Origin: Dimargaris cristalligena
Lineage: Eukaryota
DNA: 32,375 nucleotides
NCBI GenBank assembly: GCA_003614675.1
Contig: ML002424.1
Span: forward strand, 1 to 32,375
Reading direction: 5' to 3'
The notes beneath the pieces are model-generated. The model did not search any database and was not told where the DNA came from. It was given only the letters and a program-made list of their open reading frames with translations. Position numbers and translations under genes: made by a program. Shown here piece after piece: positions 5,101 to 27,284 of this stretch; the first letter of the stretch is position 1; each line of letters starts with the position of its first letter.

Positions 5101-5860
5101 TTGCAAGTGGAAGACTCGCTCTTATTTCCAGGGGTCACACAGGGCAGAGTTTTGATACATGTCGGATGACTCAAATCCGAATAGTCCCAAATACGGACAG
5201 TACCCTCGCCATCCACGGAGGCCAGGCGGGGCTCCGCGGGATGAAATGTCAATGAGTGAATGGAGCGAGTATGTCCCTTTAGTCGCAGGGTCTGGGAAAT
5301 ATTATTGATGCGGACCATAAGGAGAGTTTCTTCTTCATCGCACGCAATACCAACCCACTCGCGGTCAGAGCTTACTTCGAGGTCCCGGACCGGGGCGGTA
5401 GTCCGGGCGATCATTGACTGGTATTCGAAAGACGGGTAGTCATAAACGACAACCGTGCGATCTTCCGAACCAACTATAACCGCGTGATCGGTCACTGCCA
5501 AACAGGTGATTGAGTCGGACTGGGCTTCCATGGTCTGGGTCTCCCGATCGCGGGCCTCGGGAGCGGTTTCGAAACTACGAACTAAGAAGTCAGCCCCACC
5601 TGTAATGATATGGCTGAGAACAGGAGGGGGAGGGGTAGAAGGAAGGAAGGGATATACAGTAGGAAACAGTGTTGTTCGTTAAAACATACGGTCGCTATGA
5701 ATAGTGGAGGCTATGGTGGAGGCCCAGGACGGCTCAGGCCGTTCATTCGGAGGAATCGGTTTCGCGTAAACGCTTACCTGCCATTGGCCGAAAACCGGAC
5801 AGGACATTGTCCTTCGGTATGCGCAAAACGCGGCAGTAGATCTGCTAGATGGTCTGGCAT
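2161..5860 (-). CDS. CTF4: Replisome hub protein Ctf4/Mcl1/AND-1 (N-terminal WD40 propeller + SepB domain), 4 exons: 5860-5778, 5613-4649, 4547-2631, 2384-2161; 1062 aa
   Basis: Exon 1 RFAHTEG joins exon 2 HIITGGADFLVRSF and further WD40 repeats (LKGHTRSIHSLTFHP, DGEGTVRIWD). SepB hallmark HPYFQPGSTPF..RCILAYNMIGIV..INVDFHD. Helical DKLTLQLIQAACKADRIYRALDL...AAVKIA. Donors GTAAG/GTAAAT/GTATG and CAG/TAG acceptors keep frame (83+965+1917+224=3189 nt). Confidence 0.93.
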
Positions 5861-6409: not shown

Positions 6410-7580
6410 AATTTGAGACGGGCGAAATGCAGCCCAGCTGTATAACGCTTTACATAAGATGAAAATGGGAAGATAGACGGGTGATTCAGTTGTCCCCAGT
6501 TAGGTTTACCTAGTCCAGGGGATTTTAGCCTTATACCGCCTGGGTGAACCTCTCCCGTATGTTTTCTGTCCTCGGGGCCGAATATAAGTAGTTACAATTT
6601 AACAATCGAGTCAATCGTCCTGCCGATGGTCACAATCAGTGATAATCCTCAAGGTAATTCTTTTTGATTACCGCAGTCTAAACCGACCGATTTTTATTTT
6701 GAGCGGATAGTGGGCGCCATGAGGTCAATCAATATGTTTATATTTTATCCAGTAGGGTGTGGATTGTAGTCCTCCATCTCTTTAACCATTGGATATATTT
6801 TTTCGGTCGTTTTCGAACCCTCCATCATTTATAAATTACGGTCAGACTTTAACAGCAGTCTGCCTATAATCTCCACTTGGTGATCTATAAACCACACCGA
6901 TTTTTATAATAACCCTTCCCATCCCCTCCTTCATCCAACGACTCGTTCCCCATGAAGGTCACCCGCGTATTCACCATGGCCTTTTTCGTCGCCGCGGTCG
7001 CTTTCCTAGTAGCATCCCGGGTGACAGCCGCCCCAGCTATAGCCAAAGTAGACCTACCCCTTCCAGTATCCGAATGGATCGCCGTATCGCCGTCTGGGGC
7101 ACTCGCCTCGCTGACCCGTCGCAAAATCACTATTTACGCCGATCATCTTTATGTACCCATCAGCACTAAGAATATCTTTAACGGTGGCTCACACAGGTTA
7201 GATTGGTAATAACTCGGAGTATTCTAGTTAACCCATGCAACTAATATGGAGCCACTCTCTCCTCGAAGGGATCCTTTCTAGGCGGCGAAAGCCCCGCCCT
7301 GATGACGGGATGATTACTCCTTTCAACATTAGTGATTGATTGTAACTATTGATTTCTGGAATCCATATAATCATCATTAATAAATAGCTGGTATTGATAA
7401 TACTGTTGCTTGGAAGCCTTCATCAGAGTCACTGGTTCTATATTGTGATCTAGTTATCAGATGAAACTAAAGGAGGTCGTATAAGTATTACACCTATTGT
7501 AGTAATCACAAATAGTCTACATTGTCGTTAACTCTAGTACCGATTATTGTTAGAAATCCTTAAGGAATATCGATACTACT
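6410..7580 (+). repeat. Copy A of a duplicated block (upstream region + small secreted peptide gene + 3' flank); paralogous to ~22510-24310
   Basis: Shared tracts such as GGAAGATAGACGGGTGAT (6468/22607), GTGAACCTCTCCCGTATG, GGATAGTGGGCGCCA, ATATTTTATCCAGTAGGGTGTG and TAACTATTGATTT (7343/24074). Similarity continues to ~7550/24280. Ends approximate. Confidence 0.88.
6952..7209 (+). CDS. Small secreted prepropeptide, paralog A (signal peptide, pro-region, LTRR Kex2-type site, 28-aa mature peptide)
   Basis: MKVTRVFTMAFFVAAVAFLVASRVTA|AP signal-peptide pattern. First 57 aa are colinear with 23611-23943. TATA-like TTTATAAA at ~6828 and a pyrimidine-rich leader. Confidence 0.72.
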   Translation: MKVTRVFTMAFFVAAVAFLVASRVTAAPAIAKVDLPLPVSEWIAVSPSGALASLTRRKITIYADHLYVPISTKNIFNGGSHRLDW

Positions 7581-9795
7581 GGATGTAAAGGAAGAAATCA
7601 GCTAGAGGATATTCAATAATACCCCTAGGTGATTGGTATTATTGAATAGTGTAAGTGGTAGGGGGCATTTAAAGTGGTTAAAATGAGAGGACACATAATT
7701 AAATAAACTAGCGTAATTGGTCAGAAGCGGGGGAGAATAGTAGATTTATCTGGACATATTTTTCAATAACACAATCAACAGTCCCTACCCAAAGGGCCAG
7801 AGATGGGTAAAGTGTTAGGAATTCATTCCCCGTGCCCCACGGATTCTATATTCTAGACTACAGCGTCCCATACTCGGGACATCACGTTTATCTTGATTAC
7901 TTCTTTTATCTAATTCAATGAAACCAACCGCGGACATCTGGCCTCGCCATTCGCAGCTCTTTCTCTCTTCCATATATAGTTTAAGTTGCACTGGAAAGCA
8001 CTTACGTTTATCTATCGAGTTACCTTTCCGATATATATCGGGTCGTAATGAGCTGAGTCATTCGGCCATAGGGAGGCTTTTAGCCGCCTTAAATTATTTT
8101 TTATTTTAACCACCTACCTAGTGTTCCCGGCAGCTGCTGAAGCCGTTTCTATATTGACGGTCAAATCAGTCGGGGAGAGAGCAATCGAACACTCCTTCTA
8201 TCCAAACAAGAGGTAATTGGGCCTAGATGTCACGTGAGCATCACTTATTAAAAGGCGTATTTGGTGTAACCAGCATACAATTCCAAAGGTAATCGACCTG
8301 CATCTTTATTGAGGGCCTATTCGGGGTTGGATGCAATCAAGAGGAACTTGACAGCTTTTTGATATATCCCCGGATGTGGAAAGGTCACCTTTAGCTTAAT
8401 TTTTGGCTTATCAGCCAAGTATCCGAATTTGGGATGAGAGGGGGGGGGGCTTCTTATGGTGTATTTATCCCTCTTTCGCTACCCTGATGTATCCTTTTCT
8501 TGATGAACACCCCCAAAAAGACCCATTGGCATGAGTGCCTATTTAGCTTACCGATAGAATGTGCCATATTCTAAGTTCCTTCTTCCCGTCCTTAAGAGTG
8601 ATGAGACACGTCTCGCCACTGCGTAATATATAGTACAGCGAAGGACTTTGGTGACAATTCAAACTAAACTTTAATTTATATCAATAAAATCATAAATCGC
8701 CCCCCCCCAGATTTAGGCAAGTCAAATTATTCAGGTCAACAACTCAATTATTCTAAACAGTAAGGATCCGAAGGACTGGCCATGTAGTCCATTGTGTCCA
8801 GCCCAACCTAGTATGGTAAGTTTATCATGCCAACCACCTGACCGTAAATTGATTATGCTCCAGGTTTCCCTTCACTGAATAGAAGGTCTGGGGTTTTCTA
8901 ATTCACCCCTTAGGCTTAGACGGTACTCGGGAACCTGACTATAGGTAGTACATTATATATTGATATAGAAATATATTAAATTCATGATGGCGGCGAGTTG
9001 AGTATCAACACCCAATCAGGTATCTATCGAATGTCAGAAAATCCTTATCCGGTCCTCAATAATGTAACCCGCATCAACCATTATGAAGAGTGGCTTCTTT
9101 AACGGTCTTCGGAAAGGAAGACCTGTATGCTTTTTTTAACTCACTGGTCGCAGTTTCTTATCTTTAATAATGTAAGTGTACTTACGACCTAAATGGCAGC
9201 ATACCAACAATAATAATTGACAAACACAGCAGGCCCAGCCAAGATGTTGACAGTTTCTCTAAGCGTAGAGTATGGCCACGTGTGGGCGCCTACCTTGATA
9301 CCAGAAGCCCACTTGGACAGGGGATGGCTTGTTATGGTTTGGGGAATATCTGGAATACAGAGCAGGGCAGAGTAACGGGCGCATAGGGGCCATCATGCAA
9401 GTCCGTGATGTGGCAAACGCCACTGCATAAACCCACCAAAAAAATAATACAGCCAACGGAAAATTAAGACGACTGATGCAGTGGCACCATTGCTCCAAAC
9501 AATACTGCATTTGCTCGCCCAAAATGTCCCCCTGAATCGCCCAAATTATGGAAGCCATGGGTCATCTGCTACACACTCCTAACCAACCACTGGTTGGGAA
9601 AAGGGGAGCGCGGGGTTTTAATGGAAGTTGACTCTACCAAAGTATATAACAATTCGATGGATCTAAAAGAGAGCAATAGACACGTGTATCCCAAGCGGGC
9701 CAGTAATCTTTGGGTCTTGTTTTGGTTTTGGTTACCTAGTATCTAATATCTCCTCCACGTCCTTCCTTTAGTACGGCACGCCTCGTTCAAATTGA

Positions 9796-9803
9796 TATAT
9801 AAA
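9796..9803 (+). promoter_or_regulatory. TATA box upstream of the orphan ORF at 10071
   Basis: TATATAAA followed by a CT-rich tract (9831-9855) typical of fungal start regions. Confidence 0.45.
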
Positions 9804-10070
9804 GGCCGAAGGATGCGGCCCTACACGCATTCCTCACTCTTCCCTCTTTCCCTCAAATCCAACGATCATTAACACCCTTGTACTCCATATTGAATCTGTA
9901 TTACCTGAGGCCCGACACTCACCCTTCATTTAATTTATTGAGCACCGCTTATTCCCAGTCTTGGTCACATACCGTCAGTCACTTACCATACACTCCTTAC
10001 CTAGACCTTTCTAAATCCGTGTATTCCCATTTATTTCTCGATCAAAACCTCTCTTACCCCATTCGATATC

Positions 10071-10991
10071 ATGGTTTCCGCTGTTCCCCGATTCATGAGC
10101 TCGACCGTCTCGTCCCGTGCCCGGCGCGCGACCACCCCCAAACCCCCGGTTCCCAAGTGCACCCGTTCACCTCGCCCTTCCAATGTCCTAAAATCGACCA
10201 AGGTAGTTACGCCGCCCGCCTTCACCAACCCGGGTAGCGAGAGTACATTGTCCCCCACTCTAACCCCCTCTTCAACCCCAGCCCGCACTACGTCCCCAAC
10301 CATACATCAGTCAAAGGTTACCCCCTCGCAGCATTCTGCAACCGACCGACTCACCGCTAAACCAACTCACGCCGCCGTGGAGCTGCTCCAAAGACTACGC
10401 ATGCGCTACCGGTCCGACCTTCAGGATACCGCCATGGAGCGTGGCAACAACGGTCCCTGGGTAACGGCCTTGGGGACCATTGGCCTGTCGGCCACCGCCG
10501 AACGCATTACGCTACTTAACGAACTGTCCGGCGTCAATTTCGATTTGACCATGTCGGGTGGCCATTGTATTGCCGGGTGCATTCACGATCAGGGCCACTG
10601 CGACTTGGCCTGGTCTCCCTGGGCCACCAACGAAGGCAAGCATCTGCAGGTACCTTTCCCCTTGGCCCGCAACGACTTTGCCGCCAAGCTGACGGCCCCG
10701 ATTGTTTTAAAGGGACCCAAAACTACTCGCGACCCCATCCTCTGCGCTTTTTACGAATACGGGGTGCCCGTCGAGCTGGCCACGCGTCTGTGCCAACGTC
10801 CGTTACTGCGCGCGGCCCTGCGCTATGTATACGATTCGAAATTCCAGAAGGTAGCCATTCCGATGGACTTCACTTTCTACTTAAGTTTTCATATTCTCGA
10901 GCCGAGCCTGGGCGACGCGTTCGATCTATTTTACCATGTCCACGACTGCCTCGGACGGCGGCCATTGATATGCCGCAACTGGTCCCATTAA
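10071..10991 (+). CDS. Hypothetical protein, 306 aa; Ser/Thr/Pro/Arg-rich N-terminus plus a globular-looking C-terminal region
   Basis: Long GC-rich intronless ORF with C/G-ending codon bias like the neighbouring genes, an upstream TATA and an AT-rich 3' flank. Family not recognised. Confidence 0.7.
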   Translation: MVSAVPRFMSSTVSSRARRATTPKPPVPKCTRSPRPSNVLKSTKVVTPPAFTNPGSESTLSPTLTPSSTPARTTSPTIHQSKVTPSQHSATDRLTAKPTHAAVELLQRLRMRYRSDLQDTAMERGNNGPWVTALGTIGLSATAERITLLNELSGVNFDLTMSGGHCIAGCIHDQGHCDLAWSPWATNEGKHLQVPFPLARNDFAAKLTAPIVLKGPKTTRDPILCAFYEYGVPVELATRLCQRPLLRAALRYVYDSKFQKVAIPMDFTFYLSFHILEPSLGDAFDLFYHVHDCLGRRPLICRNWSH

Positions 10992-12264
10992 TGGACTATC
11001 TTATTTATTTTAATTTTTATTGCCCATATTTTATACATCACCTATACATTATTTATTAATTATTGTTCGTATATAACTCGGCATTTTCATCATAAGCCTA
11101 AACTAGCGTCATAGTGCATTGGTTCTGCACCCTAGTCTCATTTTATAACTGTATTTCTAAGCATCATGTACAATAAATTAACATGTCTAATTCAAGTAGA
11201 CACGATGATGTAGCGGACGAACTAACAAATAAATATTAGCTACTGAATCGCGGTGGTAATAGTACACTTCAATGCTAGATAGTCCCGAGGGCAGGAAACT
11301 ACAGCCTGGTTGTTTCGAGGCGGGAAGATGCATATATATAAAAGGACGGTCGTACGAGATATAGAATTAATAACATACTACTATGGGTAATAATATATGG
11401 TTTAAAAAATGCGAGGATCCTTAGACCTTGGAGTTCAAACGCAAAGGGCAACGTGTAGTTCTATGGACATCATAGCAATTGGCGTAATTTGGCGAGCGAA
11501 GCCAACCTGGTTATCCGGATACTTGGAGATAGCTTGGGCTATTAATTCAGGTAGGATCAAGAGACCTGGAACTAAATTGACCAAGGCTGTTGAACAATGT
11601 GAAAATAAACACGCTGAAGTAGTGACGGAGCAACACGGCTGGATATAGTAAACCTGTTAATGGCTAATTTTCGGCGTAGGACTGGTTGATCGTTGCCTTG
11701 GATATAGCGTGGTTGGAAATAAGTCAATTGCAGGTCATGTAGAATTGATAACATGAAAGCATTACATAATTCATTGGCCCAATTCGTTGGAGGTTCCTAA
11801 AATCCTTCCTGGCCGACATGTCCGCCAGGGCGTCAAGGAGTACTATATTTCTGATTTTGGAGGGCCAGTAAGCTTTTTAGTCAGTATATCTTTGAGTGTT
11901 TGCAGACCGGGGAATGTTAGCACCAGATTGTCCAAATAATCGAATATATTAGCTATTCTGCATTCCTATTAGCCAACATTGCTCACGCACTTGGTCAATA
12001 GGGGTTTCCCCTGTAGTATTAACGCCCAATTTTTGACGATAACCTATTCTAAGCACCCCATGAAGAATACTAAGCACCACCACTAACTATATTCTCTAGC
12101 AACTAGACATAAATAAATATGATTTGTTTATTTGAATTATGTAGGGGTAGTGAAGTTCAACAAGAAAAAGGGCATCCGGTAGGGGGCAGCCAATCGTTAT
12201 CCAATTAATTAAGAAACATACGGAGGCATAGGGGCAATCGATGCTATAAGTGTTTGTTGGTTTA

Positions 12265-13347
12265 TTAATTGCGCTTCTTGCCAATATTAATGTAGCCGGT
12301 ACCCACACAAGTCAAAAGGACCGTTTTCGTAGCCGGGTCGGGCTTAATCTTAAATGTTACGCCGAACATCTGTTTCAGGTCCCGCAGATACTGTATCGTG
12401 AATTCGGTGAGTTTACCGAGTCGGACTTTGGACACGTCTTCGGAACTCAGGACCATCATGAGTAAGGCCATCCACTGGGTATTGCTATCGAAGACACCGC
12501 CGCGATCGATTTCCTTGAGCAGCTGTTTAGCCGCGAGGCGACCGAATTCTTCGGGGGGCTGATCGGAGGAGCCGGCCATTTCGGCGGACAAGAGAGCACC
12601 GGTCGTACTTTCAGCAACCAGCGATATGCCATACCCGGATGAACGACCGGCGTCGGCCCCTTTGAAGACATCGGTGTAGAGATAGATATCGGGGATAAAC
12701 CGGTTGAGGACGGACCGGGCCGAACTGACCACCCGGTTGGGAATTTCGGGGGCCACTCGGGTGGAGTAAATGATACCCCGGATGCGTTTGATCCGGCCCT
12801 CGTCGACTAACTGGACGGGCTGGACTCCGTTGGCGATGGGACAGCTAAAGTGCACTTCACCGCCGCCCAGGGGGGCCGACCCCCGTTTGGCAATCCGTAA
12901 TTGGGCGTCTTCAGCCACGCCGAACTTGAGCAGTTGCGGTAAAGCGACGGTACGCAGCGTGTCCACCGACAGGTCCAGATCGTTGGAAGTCACCCCCGTC
13001 AGGCGAACCGTGAGCGGGTTCTTACAGAACGGGGCCAGCACCAGCAGGGCTTCGAGAAAATAGCCAATGCCCCGACTGGAGGGACAATCGTGGTTGATTT
13101 TACCGCCGGTCAGAATGCCGGGTTTGTAGATCATGGAGGTACCGGTGTAGCCAATGTCAATGGTTGAACCGTTGGAAATTTTATCGAGGAGGCGGAGGAA
13201 ACTGGCTTCGAAATCCTCCAGACCGGGCCGTTCGGCTTGGTGCCGGATTTTATCAATTTTCACGACGCGGCCGGCCAGCGTGGCCATGACCAGACGCTGG
13301 CGGAAGTAATTGTGGCCCTCGTATTTAAGAACCAGGGTGCTGCTCAT
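12265..13347 (-). CDS. RCL1: RNA 3'-terminal phosphate cyclase-like protein Rcl1 (18S rRNA biogenesis)
   Basis: YEGHNYFRQRLVMATLAG, PGLEDFEASFLRLLDKISNGS, KRGSAPLGGGEVHF, GRIKRIRG, IQYLRDLKQMFGVTFKI, CVGTGYIN. Intronless, 360 aa. Confidence 0.97.
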   Translation of the reverse strand: MSSTLVLKYEGHNYFRQRLVMATLAGRVVKIDKIRHQAERPGLEDFEASFLRLLDKISNGSTIDIGYTGTSMIYKPGILTGGKINHDCPSSRGIGYFLEALLVLAPFCKNPLTVRLTGVTSNDLDLSVDTLRTVALPQLLKFGVAEDAQLRIAKRGSAPLGGGEVHFSCPIANGVQPVQLVDEGRIKRIRGIIYSTRVAPEIPNRVVSSARSVLNRFIPDIYLYTDVFKGADAGRSSGYGISLVAESTTGALLSAEMAGSSDQPPEEFGRLAAKQLLKEIDRGGVFDSNTQWMALLMMVLSSEDVSKVRLGKLTEFTIQYLRDLKQMFGVTFKIKPDPATKTVLLTCVGTGYINIGKKRN

Positions 13348-14036
13348 GGTCGACGGAGTGGTGGGGCCGGCTACGGGAGCGGGTAAATATAAGTGGGGGG
13401 GGTAGATTCCTACAAGAGGAGAGAGGATCGGGCAATGCTTATAGTACAGAGAACATGGAAGAGAAACGACGATGCAACAAAAGGAATAGGCTGGCGGTAA
13501 AAAACACCATATACGAGTAAACCACTTGGCTTTGCAGTTTGAGTGCTAATCAAGTTGACTTTTCTTTAAGGGTGGAGAGGGTTGAACATACAGATTAAAA
13601 AAAGAACAAACGAAAAATTACTATAGTACATGGAGCCTACAAACTGGGTAGTTAGGCGACTGTTAAAAATCATATAGAAATGCTAGAAAAATTGGCCCTT
13701 GGAACTGGTAGAGGGATAGGTAAAAATAGGCACGTGACTTGACTAGAGCCACATTTTATTTACAGTGCAGGGTATAACCTCCCCTCTGGACAGCATAGCG
13801 TGTAGACCGATTTAATACCAGTAATAAAAATGATTTACACTGCCATATTATCACTTTACCAACTAAACTATTGAGGTATTATAGCAAATAACTTTATTCA
13901 GCTAGAAATAGACAACCGGGCAATATGAGGCAGGCACGGAGGACATTGATTCATATTCACAGACCCCAGACTTAAATCAATCAATCAAGAATAAAAAATG
14001 AAAAACCTCACTCCACCCCCCGCAAATAGGCGCAAC

Positions 14037-15275
14037 TCAGAGGCGATATTCGCGAAGGACGACGGGAACACTGGTGAATGGAATCATGCCAACTTCGGTA
14101 ATGGCCATGCTGAGGTATTCGGTGGGCGTCACATCGTACATGAGGGTCAGCAGATTTAGGTTATTAACGGATTTCCAATTGGTGAGCGAGGCGGCCGGGT
14201 CAATGGGCGAGCCGTCCTTATGGGCGGCCAAATCATGAGGGTCGCCCAATTCGTTCATGACGACCGAGTCGAGTTGGACCCGCTCGGTGAATTTGTAAAT
14301 TTCGGAAAAGACAATCACGGGAATATTGCGCCGATGGGCGGTCATAGCCACCAGGGCCGTACCGGCCCGGGAAAACAGGGCGCCGTTGGCCAGAACGGCG
14401 TGGGTCCCCAAAAACACTTTAGTGGCCTCCTTCATTGTGGAGCTAATGGAGTTGATGTAAGCGTAGGTGCACGCTAGGCCCGCCGTAGCCAAATCCCGGA
14501 GCAACTTCAGGCCCTCCAATAACGGACGGGAATCGATGACAATGACCCGGAACTGGATACCGGCCTGGTGGGCGGCAATAAGCAGGGTCTTGACGATGGA
14601 CGAGCAAGCGTAGGTCAATACGACATCACCGTCCTGGATTTTCTGCAGGCCGTATTGGACAATCAGGCGGTCGGCGGCGGTGATGCGGTCGCGGATAAAT
14701 TCATCGATTTTTTCAATGAGCTGCCCTTTGGCGTCGCTCTCGGGCAGATCGATATCCAGGATGGAGATGTGGTACTTGAGGAAGCGGATGGCGTTACCCA
14801 TGGTGACGGCCATGGGGCGCATACTGACGAGGTAACTGATTTGGATGGACAAATAAGTGGGCAAGTGGCGGCACAGGGTGGTTTGGGACGGGGTTTGGTA
14901 ATCCTCAATCACTTGTTTGAAGGCATTGAGCATGGCCAGGCAGCGGGCCGTGGACCCGCAGATTTTAAGCTCGGCGAACTGGAGGCCGAGGGAGCGCACA
15001 CAGGGATGCACGCCCGAGGGGGCCTGGGCGGTGGTGGCCGGGTACTCCCGCTCCTCCAAATGGGCGAACAAGGGGGAGATTTTTTTCGCAGCGGGGGTAG
15101 AGGAGGAGGAGGCTGCTCCGCCCTTGGAGGCGTTGTTGACCTTGGCGGCTTTCCCGGGGCCTGCGTTTTTCGGAGCCTGCTTGGCGGGCTTTTCGCTCTT
15201 GGGAGCCTTGGCCTTGGGCTTCGGGGTATTGCTGGCCGACGGTAGCCGGGGGCTGGACGATGCTGAATTACTCAT
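14037..15275 (-). CDS. GCD2: Translation initiation factor eIF2B subunit delta
   Basis: Lys/Ala-rich N-tail, LFAHL, ICGSTARCLAMLNAFKQVIEDY, RPMAVTMGNAIRFLK, DSRPLLEG, ERVQLDSVVMNELGDP, YDVTPTEY, PFTSVPVVLRE. Confidence 0.96.
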   Translation of the reverse strand: MSNSASSSPRLPSASNTPKPKAKAPKSEKPAKQAPKNAGPGKAAKVNNASKGGAASSSSTPAAKKISPLFAHLEEREYPATTAQAPSGVHPCVRSLGLQFAELKICGSTARCLAMLNAFKQVIEDYQTPSQTTLCRHLPTYLSIQISYLVSMRPMAVTMGNAIRFLKYHISILDIDLPESDAKGQLIEKIDEFIRDRITAADRLIVQYGLQKIQDGDVVLTYACSSIVKTLLIAAHQAGIQFRVIVIDSRPLLEGLKLLRDLATAGLACTYAYINSISSTMKEATKVFLGTHAVLANGALFSRAGTALVAMTAHRRNIPVIVFSEIYKFTERVQLDSVVMNELGDPHDLAAHKDGSPIDPAASLTNWKSVNNLNLLTLMYDVTPTEYLSMAITEVGMIPFTSVPVVLREYRL

Positions 15276-16168
15276 CGGAAGTGGCTACTGTGTAATAATG
15301 CGAAAGGTTGGGGGATACAGAGGACGGAATAAACAGAAATAAGGGGCGGGGTTGAATAGAAGAGCCCAAAAGCCGGGGATTGGTAAGGGATTAAGTGGGT
15401 AGTAGACCAATGGGCGAAATAAAATTGGAAGGCGCTGGGAAATGAATCATAAGGTGAGTCAACAGCAGACGATGGGAGCTGATCAAGGAAGGTGTGTAGT
15501 TTCCATTGGAGTGATGTGGCAGCTCTTGGTAAATGAATTGGACGCAGGCGGGGACTTGGGGAACGCTTCAGTGGATCTGTAGGGCCTGCCTGTACCACTT
15601 TTGGCGGGCTAAGCTCCCGAAGCCCCTCCCCACTAACCAACTAACTGTACCCATTAAGAAGTACTGCTGATGGTACAGACAATGCCTTCTCGGCTTGGGC
15701 ACAAAGGTAATAAACCGAAGAGCCTCTTTTCATTTATCCGCCCTTGGAAGATGGAAGAGCCCTGTGTCACATAAACCCGGATTGATAAGATGATACCTTC
15801 AACTGCAGTCTAAGTATTTCCAGAATTTACCCGAGCGCCAAGGAATTGTTAATGATTCTTTAGGGGCGCATTGTACAGTGACGACCCTAACTATAATAGG
15901 GCGCAGTTTATAGTTAACTAGTTAGTGGGGAATTGAACCAGTAAGAAGTAAGGGTATCCCTCCCTCCAGTCTCTGAAAATCGTGGTATCAAGCACCTTGG
16001 CCACTTCTCCCTTTCTATGTTTACGCCCCTTTCCCCATCTTCTCCATCTAAACTCCCCCGACTCCATTCATAGTTACTTAACCCTCTAACTAACCCGGAT
16101 CCCTCCTTACCTTAACTCCCCTTCTTTATACCTCGAGCCAGCCCTCCTTTCCTCCCTCCAGTTTAACC
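15276..16168. promoter_or_regulatory. Divergent intergenic region shared by GCD2 (-) and SGT2 (+)
   Basis: Head-to-head start codons ~0.9 kb apart, with pyrimidine-rich tracts leading into each ATG. Confidence 0.55.
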
Positions 16169-17591
16169 ATGGACGACACTCAGCGCAAATTGGTCGTGGC
16201 CATCATTGACTACCTGCAGGGCTCCATCGCCAACAACACCGTCCACAGCTCCAATGCCGAGTCCCTTGAAGGTAAAGAAGCGACCGTTTGCCCCTAGGAA
16301 GCCAGCTTGTCTGAACAGGTTTTCGTTGAAATTCTTGCCTGTCTTCTAGAGCAATATCTTGTGCAATAACCCACCCTCATGTCCCTTGCTGCGATTGATA
16401 ATTCCCTATTTAGTGGCCATCGACTGCATCGCCGAGTCCTTCGGCGTGGATTTAAGCGACGAGGCCCAGCGCTCCCAGCTGTCCATCAAACCCGCCACCC
16501 TGCAAAATGTGTTCGATATCTACTTGAAGACCCAGGACAAGATGGCTGCCAAGAAGGTGAGTACAGTCGAGCTCATGTGAATCCACCTGAATTATACTCT
16601 CCATTGATTTGCCATGCTCCCCTTTCCATAATTATCAGCCCACGTGTTTATCTCCCTATCAACGTACCATGCCATTTATACTACCCTCCTTGCATAGACT
16701 GCTTCCTCCAACGACTCCGCGAGTGGCGCTTCGGACGACTACCCCGCCCCTTTAACCGACGAGCAAAAGGCCAAGGCCGAGGAGCTCAAGGCCGCCGGTA
16801 ACAAGGCCCTCAGTAGCCAGCAGTACGCCGACGCCATCCGTCTCTACACCGAGGCCATCGCCATCAACCCCCACAACCACATCTACTTTGCCAACCGGTC
16901 GGCCGCTTACAGCCAGAGTGGCGACTTCAACAAGTCCGTCGATGACGCCAATGCCGCCATTCGTTTAGCCCCCCAATACGCCAAGGCATACAGCCGCCTG
17001 GCCCATGCCTACTACGGCCTGAAGCAATTCGACCTGGCCGTCAAGGCCTACGACCAGTGCCTGGAACTGGAGCCCAACAACGCCAACATTATCACCTCCC
17101 GGTCGGTTGCCCAACGTCGCCTCGAAGAGTCTGACGCTGCCATTTCCCCTCGCTCCGAAGGCTCCGATAGCCAAGCCGCAACTACCACCTCCTCGGCGGA
17201 CGGATCATCGTCGGCGAATACCGGTGAGGCCGGGGCCCGCGGACCCGGTGCGGGCATGGATTTCAATGGTTTGCTTAATAACCCCGCTCTCATGAACATG
17301 GCCAGTCAGATGATGGGTAACGGCGGTTTGGCTAACCTCATGAGTAATCCTGCTATTCGCCAGATGGCCCAAAGTATGATGGGCGGTGGTGCTGGTGGCG
17401 GTGACTCGGCTGACCCTATGGCCTCGATGATGAACAACCCCCAGATGCGCGAGATGGCCCAACAGTTTATGAGCGGCAATAATCCCGGTGGTGCCGATTC
17501 CGATAATCCTATGGCTGCCTTTGCCAATAACCCCGACCTGCGCGGTATGGCCGAGCAGTTCATGCGGGGCCAGGGTAATAACAACCAATAG
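16169..17591 (+). CDS. SGT2: Small glutamine-rich TPR co-chaperone Sgt2/SGTA, 3 exons: 16169-16271, 16414-16556, 16698-17591; 379 aa
   Basis: Dimerisation domain KLVVAIIDYL...ESLE|VAIDCIAESFGV. TPR repeats AEELKAAGNKAL..YADAIRLYTEAIAINP..YFANRSAAY..YAKAYSRL. Met-rich NNP repeats at the C-terminus. GT-AG introns keep frame (103+143+894=1140 nt). Confidence 0.95.
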
Positions 17592-18651
17592 CTCCTTAAG
17601 CCACACCACACGTTGGTAGGACGCGCGACTGATGAAAGAGGTGCACTTCTAGCCTAATTGCCCCCTTTAGGTCGATTGGTTTGCTTTATCAGCGGCAAAT
17701 CCATTGGAGGCGTTTGGTGGCCTCCCATCGACACCACCCCTCCGATGTCCTTTCAACCGGTTAGCCCTGAGTCAACGGCGCCTCCTTTTTACCCTCAAGC
17801 GCCATCCGCTTTTTCTAAATCAAAAATGTTTTAAAGTGCTATGTGATTTTCTTGAATACCCATAGCCACAAAATGGTTACCATTGAGTTTTGGACGAATA
17901 TCCGTTGTTGTTTATTTGGAGGGGATGAAGGCTATTAGGCGACAACCAATTTTCTTTCATTAAAAGTCGGACATTACCTGTCTCTTACTAGATATATAAT
18001 ACCAATTATAGGCTGTACTTTGTAGTATAGTATTTTTGGAATGTTCAGCTCTTCCTTGTAACTTGGAAGGATTGCACCATGGTAACTACAGTATTATGGC
18101 CGCTTCGGCGGCTGGGCCATACAAGTAAAAAAATTGAAGGATGGCAAAGCGGATGCTCTAAAACAACCAGCATAGATAAATATAAACATTGATCCGATTG
18201 ATTTCCCAAATCCCGGTTCATTATTTTCAGCTTTAGGTGGACTGCCTTTTTGAAACCACCTTAATACGCTATATACTATACGTTGACACATTAAGTCTCA
18301 AATTAGAGGCAAAAAGACCCTATGGGAGATGATGTGATACTATTGGTCTGAACAGCGGGCCCAGTTGTTTGCAGGCCAGCCACATTGCAAGTTTTCCTTT
18401 GGCCTGGGCTGAATTTCGTGCTTTCCCTGCACAACCCAAGGTAGCCAGTATTGTTTAGCCTTTCTTTCCCGTATTTTTTTTAGTATATACTTATTTTAAT
18501 AGAAACCTCCCTATTTTTCAATCCACTGTAGCTCCCCATTCTATTCATTTGAGGCATACACCACATGACACATTCACTTCTTCTTCACTAAATTATATTT
18601 TCCCAAACCAGCCATTGACTTGCGAAGTCTCCTTTGTTGGTTAGGTCGACC

Positions 18652-21069
18652 ATGAGTGCCACTTTGCCCAAGTCCGAGGACGATTCGTCCAGCTCACCCC
18701 ACTTCCACATGGCCGTTCCCGAGCCACCTGACACTCCCCCCTCTGCCACGCCCGTCTCCGACGAAGAAACCCAAACCATCGAAGCATTCAAGCTTAACCT
18801 CCGCTACAAGGCCCTACTGCAACAGCAATTGGAGCAGGTCCAGCAGCTTCACCAACAGAACCTCCAATTCCAACGGCGGCTGGTCGAAATTGCTGGTCCC
18901 CAGCGAGGTCGACGTTTGCCGCGCCAGCAAGCGCCAGTCCAGCCGAACCCCTCCGCCCTGACTAGCGGTTCCAGAACCCGCCTCGGCGCTAGTAACCCTT
19001 TCAGCCCTTCCGATGTCCCAGCCACGGACCTGGTTCAAGCCGCGGCTGAATCGGAGGGTAATCCCAACTTGGCCGATATCCTCAGCCTATCCGAGAATTT
19101 GGTGTCCATGGCTGCCAATATGAAAATTGGTCAATTCGGCAGTACCCCGGTCTCGCACGAACCCGATAACCCCCCTCTGGATTCGGACGGCGGGGGTTGT
19201 TCGTCCGACGGTGAGCAAGTATCGTACGAACACCGGAAGGTGCGGCTGAACCGCCACCGTACGGTGGCCAAAGTACCCGGAACGGTCACCAAATGGGACG
19301 TACTGGCCAAACATATCGAAATGGACCAGCAGTTTGAGCCCTACTTTGTGGATATTAACGGTGAAATACCCCCCAAGAACGCCGATGCCCTCTTACGGGA
19401 ACGGCATCCCAGTGTGCTCGATCGGTTTAATCGGTGGACTTCCAAAGAACGCCAGGCTTTGTCTGAGGGGGTGCGAGCCCAGAACAAGCGGATCATCGCT
19501 GAAATGATGAGTACCTCGTAAGTTGTGATTTGCTTTTTATATTCCTACTATACGATAGGGACCCGCTTGTAGAGTGATTCTCATTTACCTACCCGAGTCT
19601 ATATACGTATTCCTGCGTACCCCTTGATATAGCTAACTGTCTTTATTCCTTAATCCTACACTATACTATATATGTCTATACCTTTTGGGCAATTCTGTAG
19701 AAATGATCCGAATGCATCCCTCTGGGATGTTAATAAAGTCCCCAAGGCTGAGCTAGAGCGGAATCTAGAGGGTCTGGACTGGATTGAGATTTCACGCGAC
19801 TTTGTGCGGTCCCGACAGCCCAATGAATGCATTATCCAATGGACGTGCCATGACCACCCTATCATCAACAAGGATGCCTGGACCCCCGAGGAGACCGACC
19901 AGCTGATGCAATTGGTCAAGCAAAGTACGCCGCGGCGCTGGCCCCAACTGGCCGAGAAGCTGCAAACCAACCGAACGGCGGTCCAATGCTTTCAACGCTA
20001 CCAGGAGATCATCACGACCACCAACGTCGTGAAACGGCGCTGGACCCCGGAAGAAGACATGTTGCTGTACGAGGCCGTCCAAACGTACGGGGAGAAGAAC
20101 TGGCAACAAATTGCCCACGTTCTGGAAACCCGTACCGGCCAGCAGTGCCTGCACCGGTGGGCCAAAAGTATCAACCCCATTATCCGCCGGGGTCGGTGGA
20201 CCCCCGCCGAGGACCGGGCCCTCATCGCGGCCGTCGAGATCTTCGGTCCGACCCAGTGGCGCCAAGTCCAACTTTACGTCTCGTCCCGAACGGACGTGCA
20301 ATGTCGGGAACGGTACATGAATACCCTGAACCCCGACGTGAACCAAGGTCCCTGGACCCCCCAGGAGGATCGGGCCCTGATTCGGGTGGTTCAGGATATT
20401 GGACTGGGTAAATGGTCCCAGGTGGCGACCCGGATGGACAATCGGACCGATAATCTGTGTTGGCGCCGCTGGAAGAGTCTGGTTAAGAAAAAAGTGTTTG
20501 ACCCCGCGGTGATACTCCATCCCGATCAGGTTGGCGGCGAGATTGTCCTCAATTACCCTACCGACGAGGTGGGGTTTGTGCTGGATCCGGATAATTTGCC
20601 CGAAAAATTAAAGAAACAGACCACCGCAGCGGCCACTACCACCACCACCACCACCTCCTCTCCAGTCGGTGATGTGGATCCGACCTCCGACCCTGAGCTC
20701 CGTTCCAGGGAGAAGGAGGGGCAAGAACAAGAACAAGAACAAGAACAAGAGGAAGAGGGAGAGGGAGAGGGGGGGAAGGAATGGGGGGAAGAGAACGAGG
20801 ATGACCCCGAGTCCGGGCGGGCCAAACTGCACCCCTTTTTCCGGTCCGGACCCACCATGGTCGTCAAGGCCCAGTGCGACGACTCCAGCGGCAAGGTGAT
20901 GGTCGAACCCGCCCCCAATGACATTATAGCCAACCTCCGCAAACGACCCCCTAAGCCCCCTCCCTCCCCCCGTAAGCCCCGTCCCGTCAAAACAGATCAA
21001 CCGAAACGGAAACGCGGTCGTCCCCGTAAGGTTGTACCGGCCAATATTGAGGAAACGAATCATCTTTAG
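18652..21069 (+). CDS. SNAPC4: SNAPc large subunit-like (SNAPC4/SNAP190) multi-Myb-repeat protein with a C-terminal AT-hook; exons 18652-19517, 19701-21069; 744 aa
   Basis: N-terminal coiled coil LNLRYKALLQQQLEQVQQLHQQN, then PYFVDINGEIPPKNAD and RWTSKERQALSEGV. A half Myb repeat (LDWIEIS...ECIIQW) and four Myb repeats (WTPEE, WTPEED, WTPAED, WTPQED) follow, then KRKRGRPRK. Intron GTAAGT(19518)...TAG(19700) keeps frame. The Myb call is firm; orthology comes from recalled motif similarity. Confidence 0.82.
20632..20775 (+). repeat. Coding microsatellites (ACC)n, (GAACAA)4 and (GAGGGA)n in the Myb-protein linker
   Basis: Directly visible; they encode poly-Thr, (EQ)n and (EG)n. Confidence 0.85.
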
Positions 21070-21617
21070 TTAATTGGAAACACGGGGATAGTAGTTAATA
21101 AATACGAGTTCCTTATCATCTGGTGGGATTGGTTTAAACGGTGGGCATATCCAACTCGACGGTGAAGGGTGTGACAATTTCCTCCCCAATGATTAACAGT
21201 ACGGATGAAAGCGCCTGTATTTCGTTAATAAGGAGCTGAGGGACATTCAATAAACCTACATGTGGTTGGATATCAAATAGCTTGTTGCCGTCATTTCACT
21301 CCAGCCTCTATCGAGTTCCATGATATACATTTAAGAGAAATCTTGTTTAATGGAATGTGGTATAATCCGACTAGACAGGTCCATATAAATGGGCCTCCCA
21401 GGTAAAGAGCACCATGAGCTGTTTCAACCCGAGCTTACTCAACAGATGATAGTAGGTAGGGGGTATTGCTAACTAAGTGATTGTAATATAGTCACTAACT
21501 GGGGGGGGGGCAGCATAGGAGAAATAAACTGCAATAACTACCAGTACCATCCTAATAGCATCTGTAAGACACTTAGGACATATGGTGAAGTATAGGGTCA
21601 GAAGACATGGGTGTCGA

Positions 21618-22375
21618 CTGGGCTTAATTATACGGCACTATATATAGGATGGCAGTACTGAAATGGTGATTTGGTATCATCGCATATCCGAATATATACA
21701 AATATATATGTATAAAAAATCAAACAGCATTAGGGAAATATTACCAGTCAGTACCATACCTATCCGCATGGATTCGGGTATCATAAATCCATCAAGTATT
21801 ACTTTGAAACGCTCATACAAAACAAGACAGCTAACAAATGCCATACATGGTTAGCTAGTGCATTCATAAAAATTAGCTGATGATATGCATATTCTCTTGG
21901 CTAACACCCCCCGACGATATTAAAATGTTATTCTGCATCCCTTTAGTTTAATAGCGCCATTGCAGTGGCAAAGATTGGCTTACAAGCTGGACCAGCAGGC
22001 TCTTTGGATTATTTGGCCTCAGGTATCAATAGAAAAACAGACCCAGTCCTCGACATTGAAATACGTATAATTTAGTTATAGTCCTGACCAATACTGGGTC
22101 ACCAAGACATGTGTATGGAGATCGTTTTACAAATTGAACCCAAGCTCGACATTTTTTTTCTAAGCATCACAATTAGACACCCACAGCGGTAAGAAGCCGG
22201 TTGTACCATGGTGAATTTCAGCGGGTGCCCTTTAAAACTAGGGTTTTGCTCCACATGTGATTTACCAAAGGCGAACGTGCCATCGGAGCTCCCTGTTCGG
22301 AGGCCAACCCATTATAATATCTAATTAAGCCATGTCTATGGCCGCTTGATAATCAATGCTGGGTGAAATTCGGCT
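21618..22375 (+). repeat. Diverged non-coding direct repeat paralogous to ~28841-29330
   Basis: GGATGGCAGTACTG......TGATTTGGTATCA....ATATCCGAATATATAC (21647) vs GGATGGTAGTACTG......TGATTTGGAATCA....ATATCCGAATATATAC (28870). TGTCTA..GATAA..TGCT..GAAAT.CG at ~22333 vs ~29281. Confidence 0.6.
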
Positions 22376-22509
22376 TGGTTGTGCAAAGTTTTGCGCGATA
22401 TAGTTACCGGTTAAATATAAGTGACGGGTCCGAATATTAACGGACTATTACTAAATGGGCAAGAAAACACGAAGGAGCCTCCCAGCGCAAGGTAGCGGCG
22501 GGGGCACTT

Positions 22510-24310
22510 AGTTTTGAAACCCGACGGTGAGTGCAAATTCTCCCGCCCTGCTGGTTATTACGCTGGTGCAGTCAATGACCATGTGGGCCGTGACAATGTG
22601 AATATAGGAAGATAGACGGGTGATGCATTTATCCCCAGTTAGGTTTGCCCTGTCCAGGGGATTTTTTTCGTTATACCGCCCGAGTGAACCTCTCCCGTAT
22701 GCTCCCTACCGTCTGGGCCGAATCTGAGTAGCTATAGTTTAATAAGCATGTCACTCGTCCAGCGATAGTCGCATTCAACGATAATCCTAGAGACAGTCTT
22801 TTTCGATTACCGCAATCTAAACCAACCGATTATATTTTTAGTGGATAGTGGGCGCCACGAGGTCATGCAATTTGCTCATATTTTATCCAGTAGGGTGTGA
22901 AGTATACAGCCCTCCATTTCTTCAACCGGCGCCGCATCATTTTGCGGGCCGGAATTTGCATGACTCAGTGACAATTGATGGACCTAAACAACTCGTGGAC
23001 CATCTCCATGCTCCGCCTGTTGAGTCGATCAATCCCCTTCGGCCCGCTACACCGTCGACACCAATGTAGACTGTATGTACAAAAGTATAGCATCTCACTT
23101 CAATCTGAATTTAGGGACTTTATCGGATAGCATGTGGTGTTAATCATGGATTTCGCATCGGTCGAATTGATTACCATAGTTAATCATTACACAATCCCTC
23201 TGTTCAGCAGCTACTCCACGTGTTAGTCCCATTTGAGAAAACGACAACGTTTAGCCGGTGGGGGAAATAGACTGACACTCTCGAGTATAGCTTAAATAAG
23301 GGGAGAAATTTGTTGTAAAGTTGATTTGGGCCAAGGGATGGGGGTAGCTGAATACCAGCTTCCGATATTAAAGCCCTGTCTTCGCACCACCCGGTCCCTC
23401 CAACATCACCATCCCCTACCTAGGCCATCATATTATGTTTAGCCGTCCCCGATATTTTTGAGTTCTTTTTCGAACCCATCCATCATTTATATACTACGAT
23501 CAGCCTTTAATAACAGTTGGCCTAGAACTCCCGCATAGTGTTTTACGAGCCAATCATATTTCTACTTTAATTTTCTTCTGCCCCCACCTCCCCCTTGCGA
23601 CGCATTCTCCATGAAGGTCACCAGCGTATACGCCAAGGTTCTTTTCGTCGCCACGGCTTCCCTCCTCATAGCCACACGGGTGAGAGCCGCCCCAGCTTTA
23701 GCCAAATCCGAGCTGCCCCTTCCCGTAACCCAGCGGAGTGCGATGGCGACGCCCAAAGCACCCTCCTTGCTTACCCGTCGCTACCGCTCATTTTCCGCCC
23801 GATCCGCCCGTCACTGGGGCACCCGCCCCAATGCCCAGCAGCGAACCAAAAATATAGAAATTATTCCTAATTTAATAGTATTCCACGATTCTCGGAGTCA
23901 CTTTATCAGTGTAGGTAACGGATTTATGTGGAATGATCTGTAGTTCGGATGTATTTCACTGGGCCCTGAAATGAACCTGGCCCCCTCTTCTCCTTGAAAT
24001 GGAACTTTGAAAGCGGTAAAAGCCCTACCTTAATGATTTAATGACTACTCGTTACTATATTAGTATACGATCTTAACTATTGATTTTTGTAGTTCACAAC
24101 TGCTATTAATAAACAGTTATTATTGGTAATTTCTTTACCTGGAGGCTTATATTCGAGGCACAGGTCTATATTGCTGTCTAGATAATGGGCTGGTTTAAAG
24201 AGTTCGGAATAATTATTACATCTAGTATAGTAATCGAAAGTAGTGTGTACATTTTTTAACACCAGTCCCGAATTCTGGTGCGCTTCGAATGGTAGGTTGT
24301 AATAACTACT
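22510..24310 (+). repeat. Copy B of the duplicated peptide-gene block; has ~517 extra bases (22928-23444) relative to copy A
   Basis: Colinear with 6410-7580 on both sides of the extra segment. Confidence 0.88.
23611..23943 (+). CDS. Small secreted prepropeptide, paralog B (signal peptide, pro-region, LTRR site, 53-aa Arg-rich mature peptide)
   Basis: MKVTSVYAKVLFVATASLLIATRVRA|APALAKSELPLPV...LLTRR aligns without gaps to paralog A through LTRR. TATA-like TTTATATA at ~23486. Confidence 0.72.
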   Translation: MKVTSVYAKVLFVATASLLIATRVRAAPALAKSELPLPVTQRSAMATPKAPSLLTRRYRSFSARSARHWGTRPNAQQRTKNIEIIPNLIVFHDSRSHFISVGNGFMWNDL

Positions 24311-25061: not shown

Positions 25062-25670
25062 TGTCACCTTAGTTGACTAATTTTAGTCTATTAAGAGTCC
25101 TAAGGATAGGCTTCTAATAGTAGGTACGGCTTAGGCTTAGTTAAACAGTTCACTAGTATCAGGTACAGGGTATAGTACTAAATAATAAAGGTTTAATAGT
25201 AAGTATAGTTAAGGGACATACAGTGGGCACACTTACTAGTTAGTATAAGGGGAGTGAGTATATATAGAGTTTATTGGGTAAACTAAGGGGTAAGAATAAA
25301 CTAAGGACTCTAACCGGTCCCAATGGGGCCCAGTTATATATATGGGGACAACTCCAGAGGGAGGTCCCAAGGGAATGATACCACTAAGATTAAGGTATAG
25401 ATAAATAAACCAACTCGATAGTCACTAGTATCCAGAAGACTCTGAAGGTAACTAGAAGAGTCTTCAGATTAGTACTGGAGTGATTAGTGCAAAGAGGTGG
25501 AGTCCAAAAGGGGAAGGATTATATAATAAATGATGATCCCATAGTACCAGGAGTGACCATGGGAAGGTTAATAGGATGCTATAAGGCCTAATAGGGATGG
25601 ACACTACAGGTGCCTGGATTAAGGAGGATTAGATAGTCCAACAGTGAATTAGAAGGGCCAAAATTACTAA
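25062..25670 (+). repeat. Left inverted-repeat arm
   Basis: For example AAGGATAGGCTTCTAAT, CTCCAGAGGGAGGTC, GTGACCATGGGAAGGTTAATA and TGCTATAAGGCCTAATA each occur reverse-complemented in 27285-27878. Confidence 0.92.
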
Positions 25671-25918
25671 ATGAGAGTTAGTAATAGATTTTAATTCAAA
25701 CAGTGTATATTTATTGAGAAATATGGTTTATGAAAATTATTAAGTAAAACACTATACATTTTCAAAAGGTCCTGCCTGAGTTCCAGTAAGACCAGGAAAA
25801 AAATGTATATTTGTGAGACTGCTCAAAGTTAGTTGTCATTGCTGACAGAACCGTCAGTCTGCTTATTTTCATTTCCTCCACTTATATACTCAGTTATCAT
25901 TGTTTTTGCCTTCTTTAG

Positions 25919-27259
25919 TCACTCCTCTAGTGCCTCCTTTGGCTGGCTTAGGTACATTGGGTTTTTTGATTTAGTCATTAATATTACCAAGTGATAGCCA
26001 AACAACTTTCCCCAAATATTTTCCTTTTTTGCCATGCCCTTGCAGTCATAGCCCTTGCCCAGGGTAAAGAAATCGGTGAAGTGTGTTTCAGTAGTTTCAT
26101 CATAACCCAAGGTATAAATGAGCAAAGGACTGGCCAGCCTCTTATAATACCATTGGAAAAAAATGCTGAGGGGATTACTAATTTGATAAGTCTTTTTTAG
26201 GGTGGATAGAGCTCTTAATCCACTAATTTTACATTTATATAATGGTAATGCAATTTTAAGTTTTTCAAATGATATTAGGTTATAGTCTGAACCTCCATTC
26301 AGAGTTTTGAATGTATCAATAGAGCAACTATGGTCGATACTAATCAGCCCTTGATCTATTTCCCCTCCCAACACACCCAATGATTCTTGTATCTCAGGAA
26401 AGGCCATTTGGGAAAGATGCTTGCATAGTTTCATTGATATGTCCACAGGCATTGCACCTGATTTCTCAAATACCCCAATAATTTGCTTTGCCTTGTTAGG
26501 TTTCCCATTACTGGCAGTCCATATGCTGTCTGAATTTAATTTTATGGCACCAGCTGCAAAGTAATCCATAAATTCAATGGTGGTATGTTTGGGGTTTGAG
26601 GGTAGGCTATTATCACCTAGCACATTAGTTGGTTGTTTTGTTAGAGATGTGTCAGCCATTTCTACATCCAATTTAATTAACCCATTGTCAGTAGATCGGC
26701 CATTTTTCATATACATTGTGGAGTCATCACTAAGCTGATGACTGGTGGTATCTGCATGCTTATGGAACTCACATACAGAAGGGTACCCTGCGCTTTCCAT
26801 CTGCATTGGTAGCATATTGGTATTCCCTGGATGACCAGCTGGCTGTGGCAAATGAGTTCCCGCAAACTGCTGACTTGACCCTACAAGTAAATCACTGCAA
26901 TTCACATGGGGCCCAGGGTTGGGGGGAGATTATTGTTGACTAATACCATTACTAGGATCTGATGCAAACCAGAAGGACTTGGGAAACCCAGGCAGTATTT
27001 CCTTTATTTCAGAGATGCAAATATCTGTGATAGGCTGGTTAAAGAATGACAATGGAGTAGGTCTCCCATTTGTAGGACTTAGTGGTGGTAACAGGTCCCT
27101 GTCATTGGACTGTAAAGGTAAGGCATTGAAATTGTCAATCATAAGCAATCCTTTGACAGCATCATTTAACAATAGTTTATCTGGTATATTGTCAGCAGGA
27201 GCAGGCTGTACATAACCTTGGCATACTACCAGCAACAAGATGAATGTGTGATAAGCCAT
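25919..27259 (-). pseudogene. Secreted protein pseudogene (about 446 codons or more); ORFs 26930-27259 and 25919-26905 are one frame split by a TAA
   Basis: Signal-peptide-like MAYHTFILLLVVCQGYVQP. 27259-26905=354 nt, so the ORFs share a frame. The sequence reads CAA CAA TAA TCT CCC across 26932-26930. Past TGA 25921-25919 the frame continues LKKAKTMITEYISGG. Confidence 0.75.
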
Positions 27260-27284
27260 CTGATCAGCTGTTTAAATCTTTAGT

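Follow-up and report, generated by a model that had tools for sequence, protein, structure and literature searches.

Two open reading frames (ORFs) on one fungal contig agree in a secretion-type leader and in much of the DNA around them, and part company in what would be the secreted product; does the product vary freely within a family of precursors, or does a comparison of two copies mislead? The question is raised by a stretch of 32,375 nucleotides (nt) of Dimargaris cristalligena DNA (assembly GCA_003614675.1, contig ML002424.1, positions 1 to 32,375 of the forward strand), called the window below, which holds copy A at 6952-7209 and copy B at 23611-23943, both on the plus strand. A first-pass annotation made from the letters had read them as an undescribed family of paralogous, Cys-free prepropeptide genes with a conserved leader, conserved flanks and a hypervariable mature peptide, and had given translations of 85 and 110 residues, which we reproduce. 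The best overall explanation, in which our confidence is little better than even, is that A and B belong to a D. cristalligena family of secreted pre-pro-proteins with six or more paralogs. The two-copy comparison overstated the "hypervariable mature peptide": across six paralogs, the neighbourhood of the putative cut site is conserved.

Six paralogous loci with a common leader

Searching 1.84 billion representatives with a HMMER profile made from A and B gave eight proteins at E <= 0.001, five of which are D. cristalligena proteins with the same N-terminus. In a profile search of 5.8 billion clusters all six matches came from D. cristalligena, and a sixth locus was added. The annotated paralogy is borne out by these searches: they bring the family to six paralogous loci, all in D. 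cristalligena, where restriction to the species refers to the collections searched, whose coverage of other Dimargaritales proteomes is unconfirmed. No third copy of the ORF was found within the window. Some candidates were rejected on inspection. P0008, a tandem-repeat protein of 498 residues from an ENA contig, collected 73 bits over 9 repeats and reached a best pairwise BLASTP E-value of 0.03, and P0010 and P0011 are repeat proteins of 1,500-1,900 residues that match hydrophobic leader positions only. The family alignment gave 131 pattern matches in Joint Genome Institute (JGI) metagenomes, none of which was confirmed, and a search of the ESM Atlas with B gave no usable match. Searched to E <= 1, A, B, P0006 and P0013 have no Pfam-A family at threshold; the sole Pfam match is a sub-threshold chance match of B.

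The family proteins are 74-117 residues long, and UniRef labels two of the paralogs 'Secreted protein'. Another paralog, P0014 (RKP38766.1, on another contig; 100 residues), carries the UniRef name 'Amine oxidase' without support in its sequence. Both copies of the window are already deposited as hypothetical proteins, A as RKP37958.1 / KAJ1991248.1 and B as RKP37963.1 / KAJ1991242.1, and a second D. cristalligena assembly has them with the same spacing (H4R33_001443, H4R33_001449). Between the two assemblies A is identical, B differs at 2 of 107 residues (A26T, V90I) and another paralog at 2 of 117. The word "undescribed" thus holds for the literature, where no paper on the family or on the locus tags was found (supplements of secretome surveys and of surveys of kexin-processed repeat proteins, KEPs, might list the proteins), and does not hold for the databases.

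The first 171 nt (57 codons, up to LTRR) align between A and B without a gap, as had been annotated, with identity at 125 of 171 nucleotides and 29 of 57 amino acids. Residues 1-57 are gap-free in all six paralogs, among which pairwise leader identity ranges from 26 to 39 of 57. The pair A and B is not set apart from the other members by closer relationship. Invariant in all six are M1, K2, V3, V6, F12, A26, A27, L54 and R57. In copy A the predicted signal peptide occupies codons 1-26 (6952..7029, plus strand), with a hydrophobic core (Kyte-Doolittle mean 2.42 over residues 6-22), small residues at -3/-1 and V-T-A before the predicted cut; the pro-region follows at codons 27-57 (7030..7122, plus strand) and ends in LTRR (7111-7122). 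In copy B codons 1-57 lie at 23611..23781 on the plus strand, with the predicted signal peptide at 23611-23688 and the end of the pro-region, again LTRR, at 23770-23781. The N-terminus is signal-peptide-like in six of six paralogs: residues 6-22 form a hydrophobic core (mean 1.5-2.4), and positions -3/-1 hold small residues. None of the six contains a cysteine, and the description of the family as Cys-free stands. That these loci form a real family of secreted-protein genes we consider likely.

The annotation had also taken the dibasic pair and LxxR at the end of the pro-region for Kex2 cleavage motifs. LxxR survives the wider comparison, L54-x-x-R57 being present in all six paralogs, and RR does not, being confined to three. 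The invariant L54-x-x-R57 fits the extended Kex2 motif LxxR, with Leu at P4, Arg at P1 and a tolerant P2 (PMC8528282; papers are cited here and below for the sections concerned). Further possible sites are V/A-T/S-K-R at positions 39-42, found in four of the six, and a Q-K-R that ends the basic core described below in three; at 41-42, B has QR and A has EW. Dibasic sites number one in A, one in B and up to three or four in other paralogs. Processing by kexin at LxxR or KR is a tentative proposal, to which we give somewhat less than an even chance.

An AlphaFold2 model of B, built on the six-sequence alignment, has a mean predicted local distance difference test score (pLDDT) of 56. Its N-terminal helix (pLDDT 83-91) is the sole confident part; the pro-region (51-64) shows no secondary structure, and residues 76-110 stay below 50.

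The basic core and the variable tails

BLASTN comparison of the two loci gave three colinear blocks on the plus strand. The far-upstream block pairs A 6460-6787 with B 22599-22927 (80.1% over 331 columns, E 1e-79), the proximal upstream and leader block pairs A 6795-7122 with B 23452-23781 (70.6% over 330 columns, E 5e-39), and the 3' block pairs A 7258-7543 with B 23989-24271 (67.9% over 290 columns, E 3e-17). In 60-nt windows across the alignment, identity runs at 72-87% within the far-upstream block, at 55-83% over the proximal promoter and the leader, and at a flat 58-68% in the 3' block. Between the second and third blocks (A 7123-7257, B 23782-23988) only 58 positions match, and 100 shuffles gave 53.3 +/- 7.7; identity there is at chance level, and the identity valley after RR is therefore real. 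It lies below the identity of the flanks (58-87%) and reaches about 50 nt past both stop codons. The products after RR, 28 residues in A and 53 in B, do differ as had been annotated, their DNA matching no better than when shuffled.

What the valley means becomes clearer with the other four paralogs. The first part of B after R57 is an Arg-rich basic core, codons 58-81 (23782..23853, plus strand), which is common to other paralogs; an AT-rich tail of 29 codons and the stop follows at 23854..23943. The 28 post-RR codons and stop of A (7123..7209, plus strand) are without the basic core. When a profile is made from three other loci, B can be aligned with it up to position 81, and A only up to position 58. 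In local alignments with 2,000 shuffles, each of the four other non-A paralogs shows similarity to the post-R57 part of B (P = 0, 0, 0 and 0.03), whereas the same part of A has no significant similarity to any paralog (best uncorrected P 0.04-0.05, against the tail of one). Beyond the core, no mutual similarity was detected among the tails of the paralogs (P 0.36-0.78). In the DNA alignment of A and B there is a 66-nt gap in A after RR, and in-frame gaps after R57 also occur in other members of the six-paralog alignment. A frameshift in A was considered and rejected, as the family profile finds no match in any other frame of 6900-7600.

Since the core is common to the four non-A paralogs, the part next to the cut site is not hypervariable; and since others keep the core and A has the 66-nt gap, the contrast between A and B is mostly a loss in A. 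On these comparisons, the A/B valley is not a symmetric hypervariability of the mature peptide. That A is a degenerate or re-purposed copy is rather probable. Truly variable are the tails, that is, A after RR and the last 29 codons of B, and for B residues 58-81 the claim of hypervariability has to be given up; C-terminal parts do differ among the paralogs in both length and sequence.

Base composition follows the same division. G+C content (GC) is 61% in the leaders of A and B, 62.5% in the core of B and 55-58% in four housekeeping ORFs of the window, and falls to 39% in the 28 post-RR codons of A and 33% in the last 29 codons of B, with 42-43% in intergenic DNA. The open frames of the tails carry no weight, because chance stop-free runs are frequent: runs of 28-29 codons start at 17-19% of positions in the non-coding DNA of the window, and one as long as the tail of B at 17%. 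The variable parts may be non-coding altogether. The annotated contrast between leader and mature peptide thus arises mostly from setting a copy without the core beside an intact one, and from taking AT-rich tails for peptide.

Substitution rates were computed from the DNA of A against B only. In the leader the ratio of non-synonymous to synonymous rates (dN/dS) is 0.61-0.75 by three methods, and the synonymous rate (dS), about 0.4-0.5, is not saturated. Nucleotide identity of the coding part is 73%, compared with 80% in the far-upstream block. These values suggest that the leader is at best under weak constraint.

These results bear directly on the model implied by the annotation, in which the peptide after RR is the active product and is diversified by selection, as in the precursors of toxins, pheromones and effectors, with leader and flanks conserved. 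The chance-level identity after RR between flanks of much higher identity is what such a model predicts, as are the mosaic of in-frame gaps after R57 across the six paralogs and the tails without detectable similarity; with leader dS at just 0.4-0.5, moreover, the valley exceeds what neutral point substitution would be expected to produce. However, the first 24 post-RR residues of B are kept in four paralogs, the variable stretches have intergenic GC and open frames that are unremarkable by chance, and the tails rest on gene models that differ between loci and between annotations. We regard this model as quite unlikely.

Gene models, flanks and the proposed precursor

The deposited gene models end the two coding regions in a different way from the uninterrupted ORFs. 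Matching protein P0005 to the window places an intron of A at 7197-7426 (donor GTTAGA) and a last exon of 22 nt at 7427-7448; matching P0003 places an intron of B at 23915-24063 (donor GTAACG) and a last exon of 20 nt at 24064-24083, all on the plus strand. The modelled introns lie at non-homologous positions, with both last exons inside the 3' block, and at a third locus two annotations disagree outright on the gene model. The acceptor modelled for B (ATTAG) and the 13-nt run with a stop codon that follows it are kept in A, where a GT at 7184, compatible in phase, would let the last exon of either copy end in N-Y-stop.

Within the 3' block (23989-24050 in B, 7258-7325 in A) one frame is similar in A, in B and in P0014, whose JGI model reads the equivalent of this block as coding and shares an identical run of 10 residues with B. 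The frame stops at the same aligned place in all three and has an in-frame stop just upstream in A and B; perhaps it is a relic, perhaps an alternative last exon.

A further reading is thus that the variable stretch is largely intron and that a short last exon in the 3' block gives the paralogs a common C-terminus, an outcome that the annotation had named as fatal to its proposal. Both deposited models do splice into the 3' block, the acceptor and stop run of B persist in A together with the GT at 7184, the shared 3'-block frame has a common stop, and the GC of the variable stretch is intron-like. The deposited introns of A and B are not homologous, however, and the third locus uses yet another position; the donors GTTAGA, GTAACG and GTGGCT differ from GTAAAT and GTAAGT at two candidate housekeeping introns, which are too few to judge; and identity in the 3' block is flat, with no exon-like peak. 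A candidate shared last exon does exist, but it would add just about six common residues and leave 20 codons of A and 45 of B unalignable, so the common C-terminus is restored only in part. Among the alternatives weighed here we find this reading very improbable.

The flanks themselves are non-coding as far as could be seen: the far-upstream block of A has stops in all six frames, and no conserved ORF or gene was found in the flanking blocks on either strand. Rfam gave no match at the gathering score for the whole window, nor at E <= 1 for either locus, and a tRNA scan of the window found none. The annotation had reported several hundred nt of aligned upstream DNA. The similarity is there, in two blocks, which are parted in B by 524 nt (22928..23451, plus strand) that A lacks and that are unique within the window; either B gained this segment by insertion or A lost it by deletion. 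Downstream, where more than 300 nt had been reported to align, similarity begins about 50 nt after each stop and spans about 286 nt. Indels in the A/B flanks occur once per about 70 nt.

The proximal promoter and 5' leader of A (6795..6951) align with those of B (23452..23610), both on the plus strand. A TATA-like hexamer lies at 6830-6835 in A, 122 nt upstream of the ATG and followed by a CT-rich tract, and at 23488-23493 in B, 123 nt upstream of the ATG, in both cases inside the best-conserved proximal window. In the 3' block, AATAAA is found at aligned positions, 7379-7384 in A and 24108-24113 in B. The conserved spacing of the TATA-like site and AATAAA fits duplicated transcription units that keep their regulatory signals.

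At 643-778 the window has a weak third copy (67%, E ~4e-6 to 2e-5) of the sequence at 6424-6563 (also 22664-22701), the 5' part of the far-upstream block; downstream of this copy there is no family ORF. The upstream block may for that reason be, or contain, a separate dispersed element.

The same partial copy favours a reading in which the loci are a low-copy dispersed repeat whose ORFs are non-functional, the proteins being ab initio calls on surviving GC-rich frames with a hydrophobic start. Such a repeat would account for the lack of homologs outside one species and of a Pfam family, for a leader dN/dS of 0.6-0.75, for a far-upstream flank better conserved than the coding part, for members with truncated or deleted cores and for the inconsistent gene models. 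It is harder to reconcile with six loci that keep the ATG, an indel-free leader of 57 codons and the invariant residues, next to flanks of A and B with their frequent indels. The GC of leader and core is moreover coding-like, 20 points over the flanks, the hydrophobic core and small -3/-1 residues are present throughout the family, and the TATA-like site and AATAAA stand at conserved distances. We consider a non-functional repeat unlikely.

As a secreted pre-pro-protein family, the loci may be pictured as follows. Each gene would be a self-contained unit of about 1.1 kb with its own conserved, TATA-bearing promoter and an AATAAA-containing 3' region. Its product would fall into four sections: at residues 1-26, a signal peptide that is cleavable; a Pro/Ala/Ser-rich pro-region, probably disordered, that ends in the invariant L-x-x-R (54-57) and in four of six members carries V-T-K-R at 39-42; a strongly basic core of about 25 residues, ending in Q-K-R in three members; and an unconserved tail. 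The protein would enter the secretory pathway, where a kexin (Kex2-type) convertase would cut after R57 and at the KR sites and release a short Arg-rich peptide along with by-products. Copy A would have lost the basic core through the 22-codon gap and further change, and the post-RR part of A, like the last 29 codons of B, resembles in composition non-coding DNA that is translated up to whatever stop comes first. Evolution would be fast throughout the coding part (leader dN/dS ~0.6-0.75), with the regulatory flanks kept. In its plainest form this is an ordinary lineage-specific family of small secreted pro-proteins, possibly processed by kexin.

Several points weigh against this picture. The six annotated proteins were found because their ORFs are kept, and with such ascertainment decayed copies are invisible to protein searches. 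The P2 residue of LxxR is basic in just three of six paralogs (R, R, H, R, G, T), and A and B are without KR both at 41-42 and after the core. The alignment behind the AlphaFold2 model has just six sequences, which makes the missing fold weak evidence. The comparison of A with B does not suffice by itself to show coding constraint, as the leader differences by codon position (19/10/17) are not clearly non-uniform. Finally, with dS unsaturated, unconstrained point substitution alone is insufficient to bring post-RR identity down to chance; extra indels, replacement of segments between paralogs or positive selection would be needed, and each could contribute.

Neighbouring genes and known systems

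Copies A and B lie among housekeeping genes. By Pfam match these are Ctf4/Mcl1 with WD40 (2593-5678, minus strand), an RNA 3'-phosphate cyclase family gene (RTC; 12265-13545, minus), an eIF2B-family gene (IF-2B; 14037-15284, minus), a TPR protein (16698-17591, plus) and a Myb protein (19654-21069, plus). In a Pfam search of 27 window ORFs only the Ctf4/Mcl1, WD40, RTC, IF-2B, TPR and Myb families were found, with no DUF3328, methyltransferase, P450 or prolyl oligopeptidase and no peptide-tailoring enzyme. Long GC-rich ORFs without a Pfam match occur on the plus strand at 10005-10991 (328 residues) and 18619-19521 (300 residues), and GC-rich ORFs of 130-157 residues, likewise without a match, on both strands of 30633-31511; presumably these, too, are genes that are lineage-specific or poorly conserved, some lying between A and B and some beyond them.

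Downstream of B, an element of 2.8 kb (25062-27878) lies between long imperfect inverted repeats, the arms of which pair 25062-25195 with 27745-27878 (78%), 25335-25375 with 27562-27602 (93%) and 25479-25601 with 27334-27456 (82%). It holds two minus-strand ORFs without a Pfam match, 25919-26929 (336 residues) and 26930-27271 (113 residues), and may be a DNA transposon with terminal inverted repeats of about 540 nt. A 70-nt direct repeat pair (21647-21716 and 28870-28939, 73% identity) is found in AT-rich intergenic DNA.

To our knowledge, almost nothing is known of the means by which mycoparasites among the zygomycetes, Dimargaritales included, manipulate the fungi that they parasitise. A family of secreted pro-proteins that is species-restricted, present in several copies and provided with an invariant convertase-type site is a reasonable candidate for such a role. 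D. cristalligena lives as a haustorial parasite on other fungi (PMC9866270; PMC6784888), and one may imagine Cys-free, Arg-rich peptides of about 25 residues, released by kexin, whose target would be the host fungus and which would serve as haustorial effectors or as membrane- or nucleic-acid-active peptides. The family would then evolve by birth and death, with in-frame indels and exchange of segments while its signals are kept, and A would be a re-tooled copy with another cargo. This extension is speculative, and we think it improbable.

The family also belongs to a kind reported by the thousand in zygomycetes, as one more uncharacterised family of small secreted proteins (SSPs; PMC9391592). 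Across 132 genomes that survey found 47,494 SSPs; groups other than singletons numbered 3,144, and among those spanning several species more than two thirds have no Pfam similarity. Zygomycete SSP orthogroups are like the present family in being secreted, shorter than 300 residues, without Pfam families, limited to close relatives and expanded as paralogs (PMC9391592). The survey is, however, a catalogue, and in the sections cited, supplements aside, the family was not found named.

Among fungal peptide precursors, a RiPP precursor, for a peptide made by ribosomes and modified after translation, of the ustiloxin/dikaritin type was rejected, there being no repeats and no UstYa/DUF3328 or tailoring gene among the 27 window ORFs. 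The Candida albicans Ece1/candidalysin precursor is likewise Cys-free; Kex2 cleaves this secreted polyprotein at KR, and the short peptides that result include a bioactive one. Unlike the present family, it yields eight peptides and an amphipathic helical toxin; we know of no sequence similarity between the two, none having been found or expected.

KEPs, which include alpha-factor precursors and Ustilago Rep1, give short and often Cys-free peptides cut at dibasic sites, as would the family (PMC6339444, PMC7329392), and have been reported as abundant in Zoopagomycota (PMC7329392). Their definition asks for three or more internal repeats with KR, RR or KK between them (PMC6339444). In the nine protein versions examined, no 4-mer occurs three times or more and there is no repeat structure, and the dibasic sites of the family separate no repeats; because internal repeats are lacking, its members are not KEPs in the sense of PMC6339444.

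Kex2-processed pro-domain (K2PP) effectors such as SnTox3, ToxA and SIX1 share with the family a signal peptide and a short, disorder-prone pro-region ending in KR, RR or LxxR (PMC8528282), for which the counterparts here are L54-x-x-R57 in all six paralogs, RR in three and the low pLDDT (51-64) of the pro-region of B. Their mature domain is folded and usually Cys-rich (PMC8528282), whereas that of the family would be 17-60 residues long, Cys-free and predicted to be unstructured. They also act on plants, whereas D. cristalligena parasitises fungi; cleavage within the family is putative. As to its leader the family resembles K2PP effectors, and as to its short basic product, peptide-hormone-like precursors.

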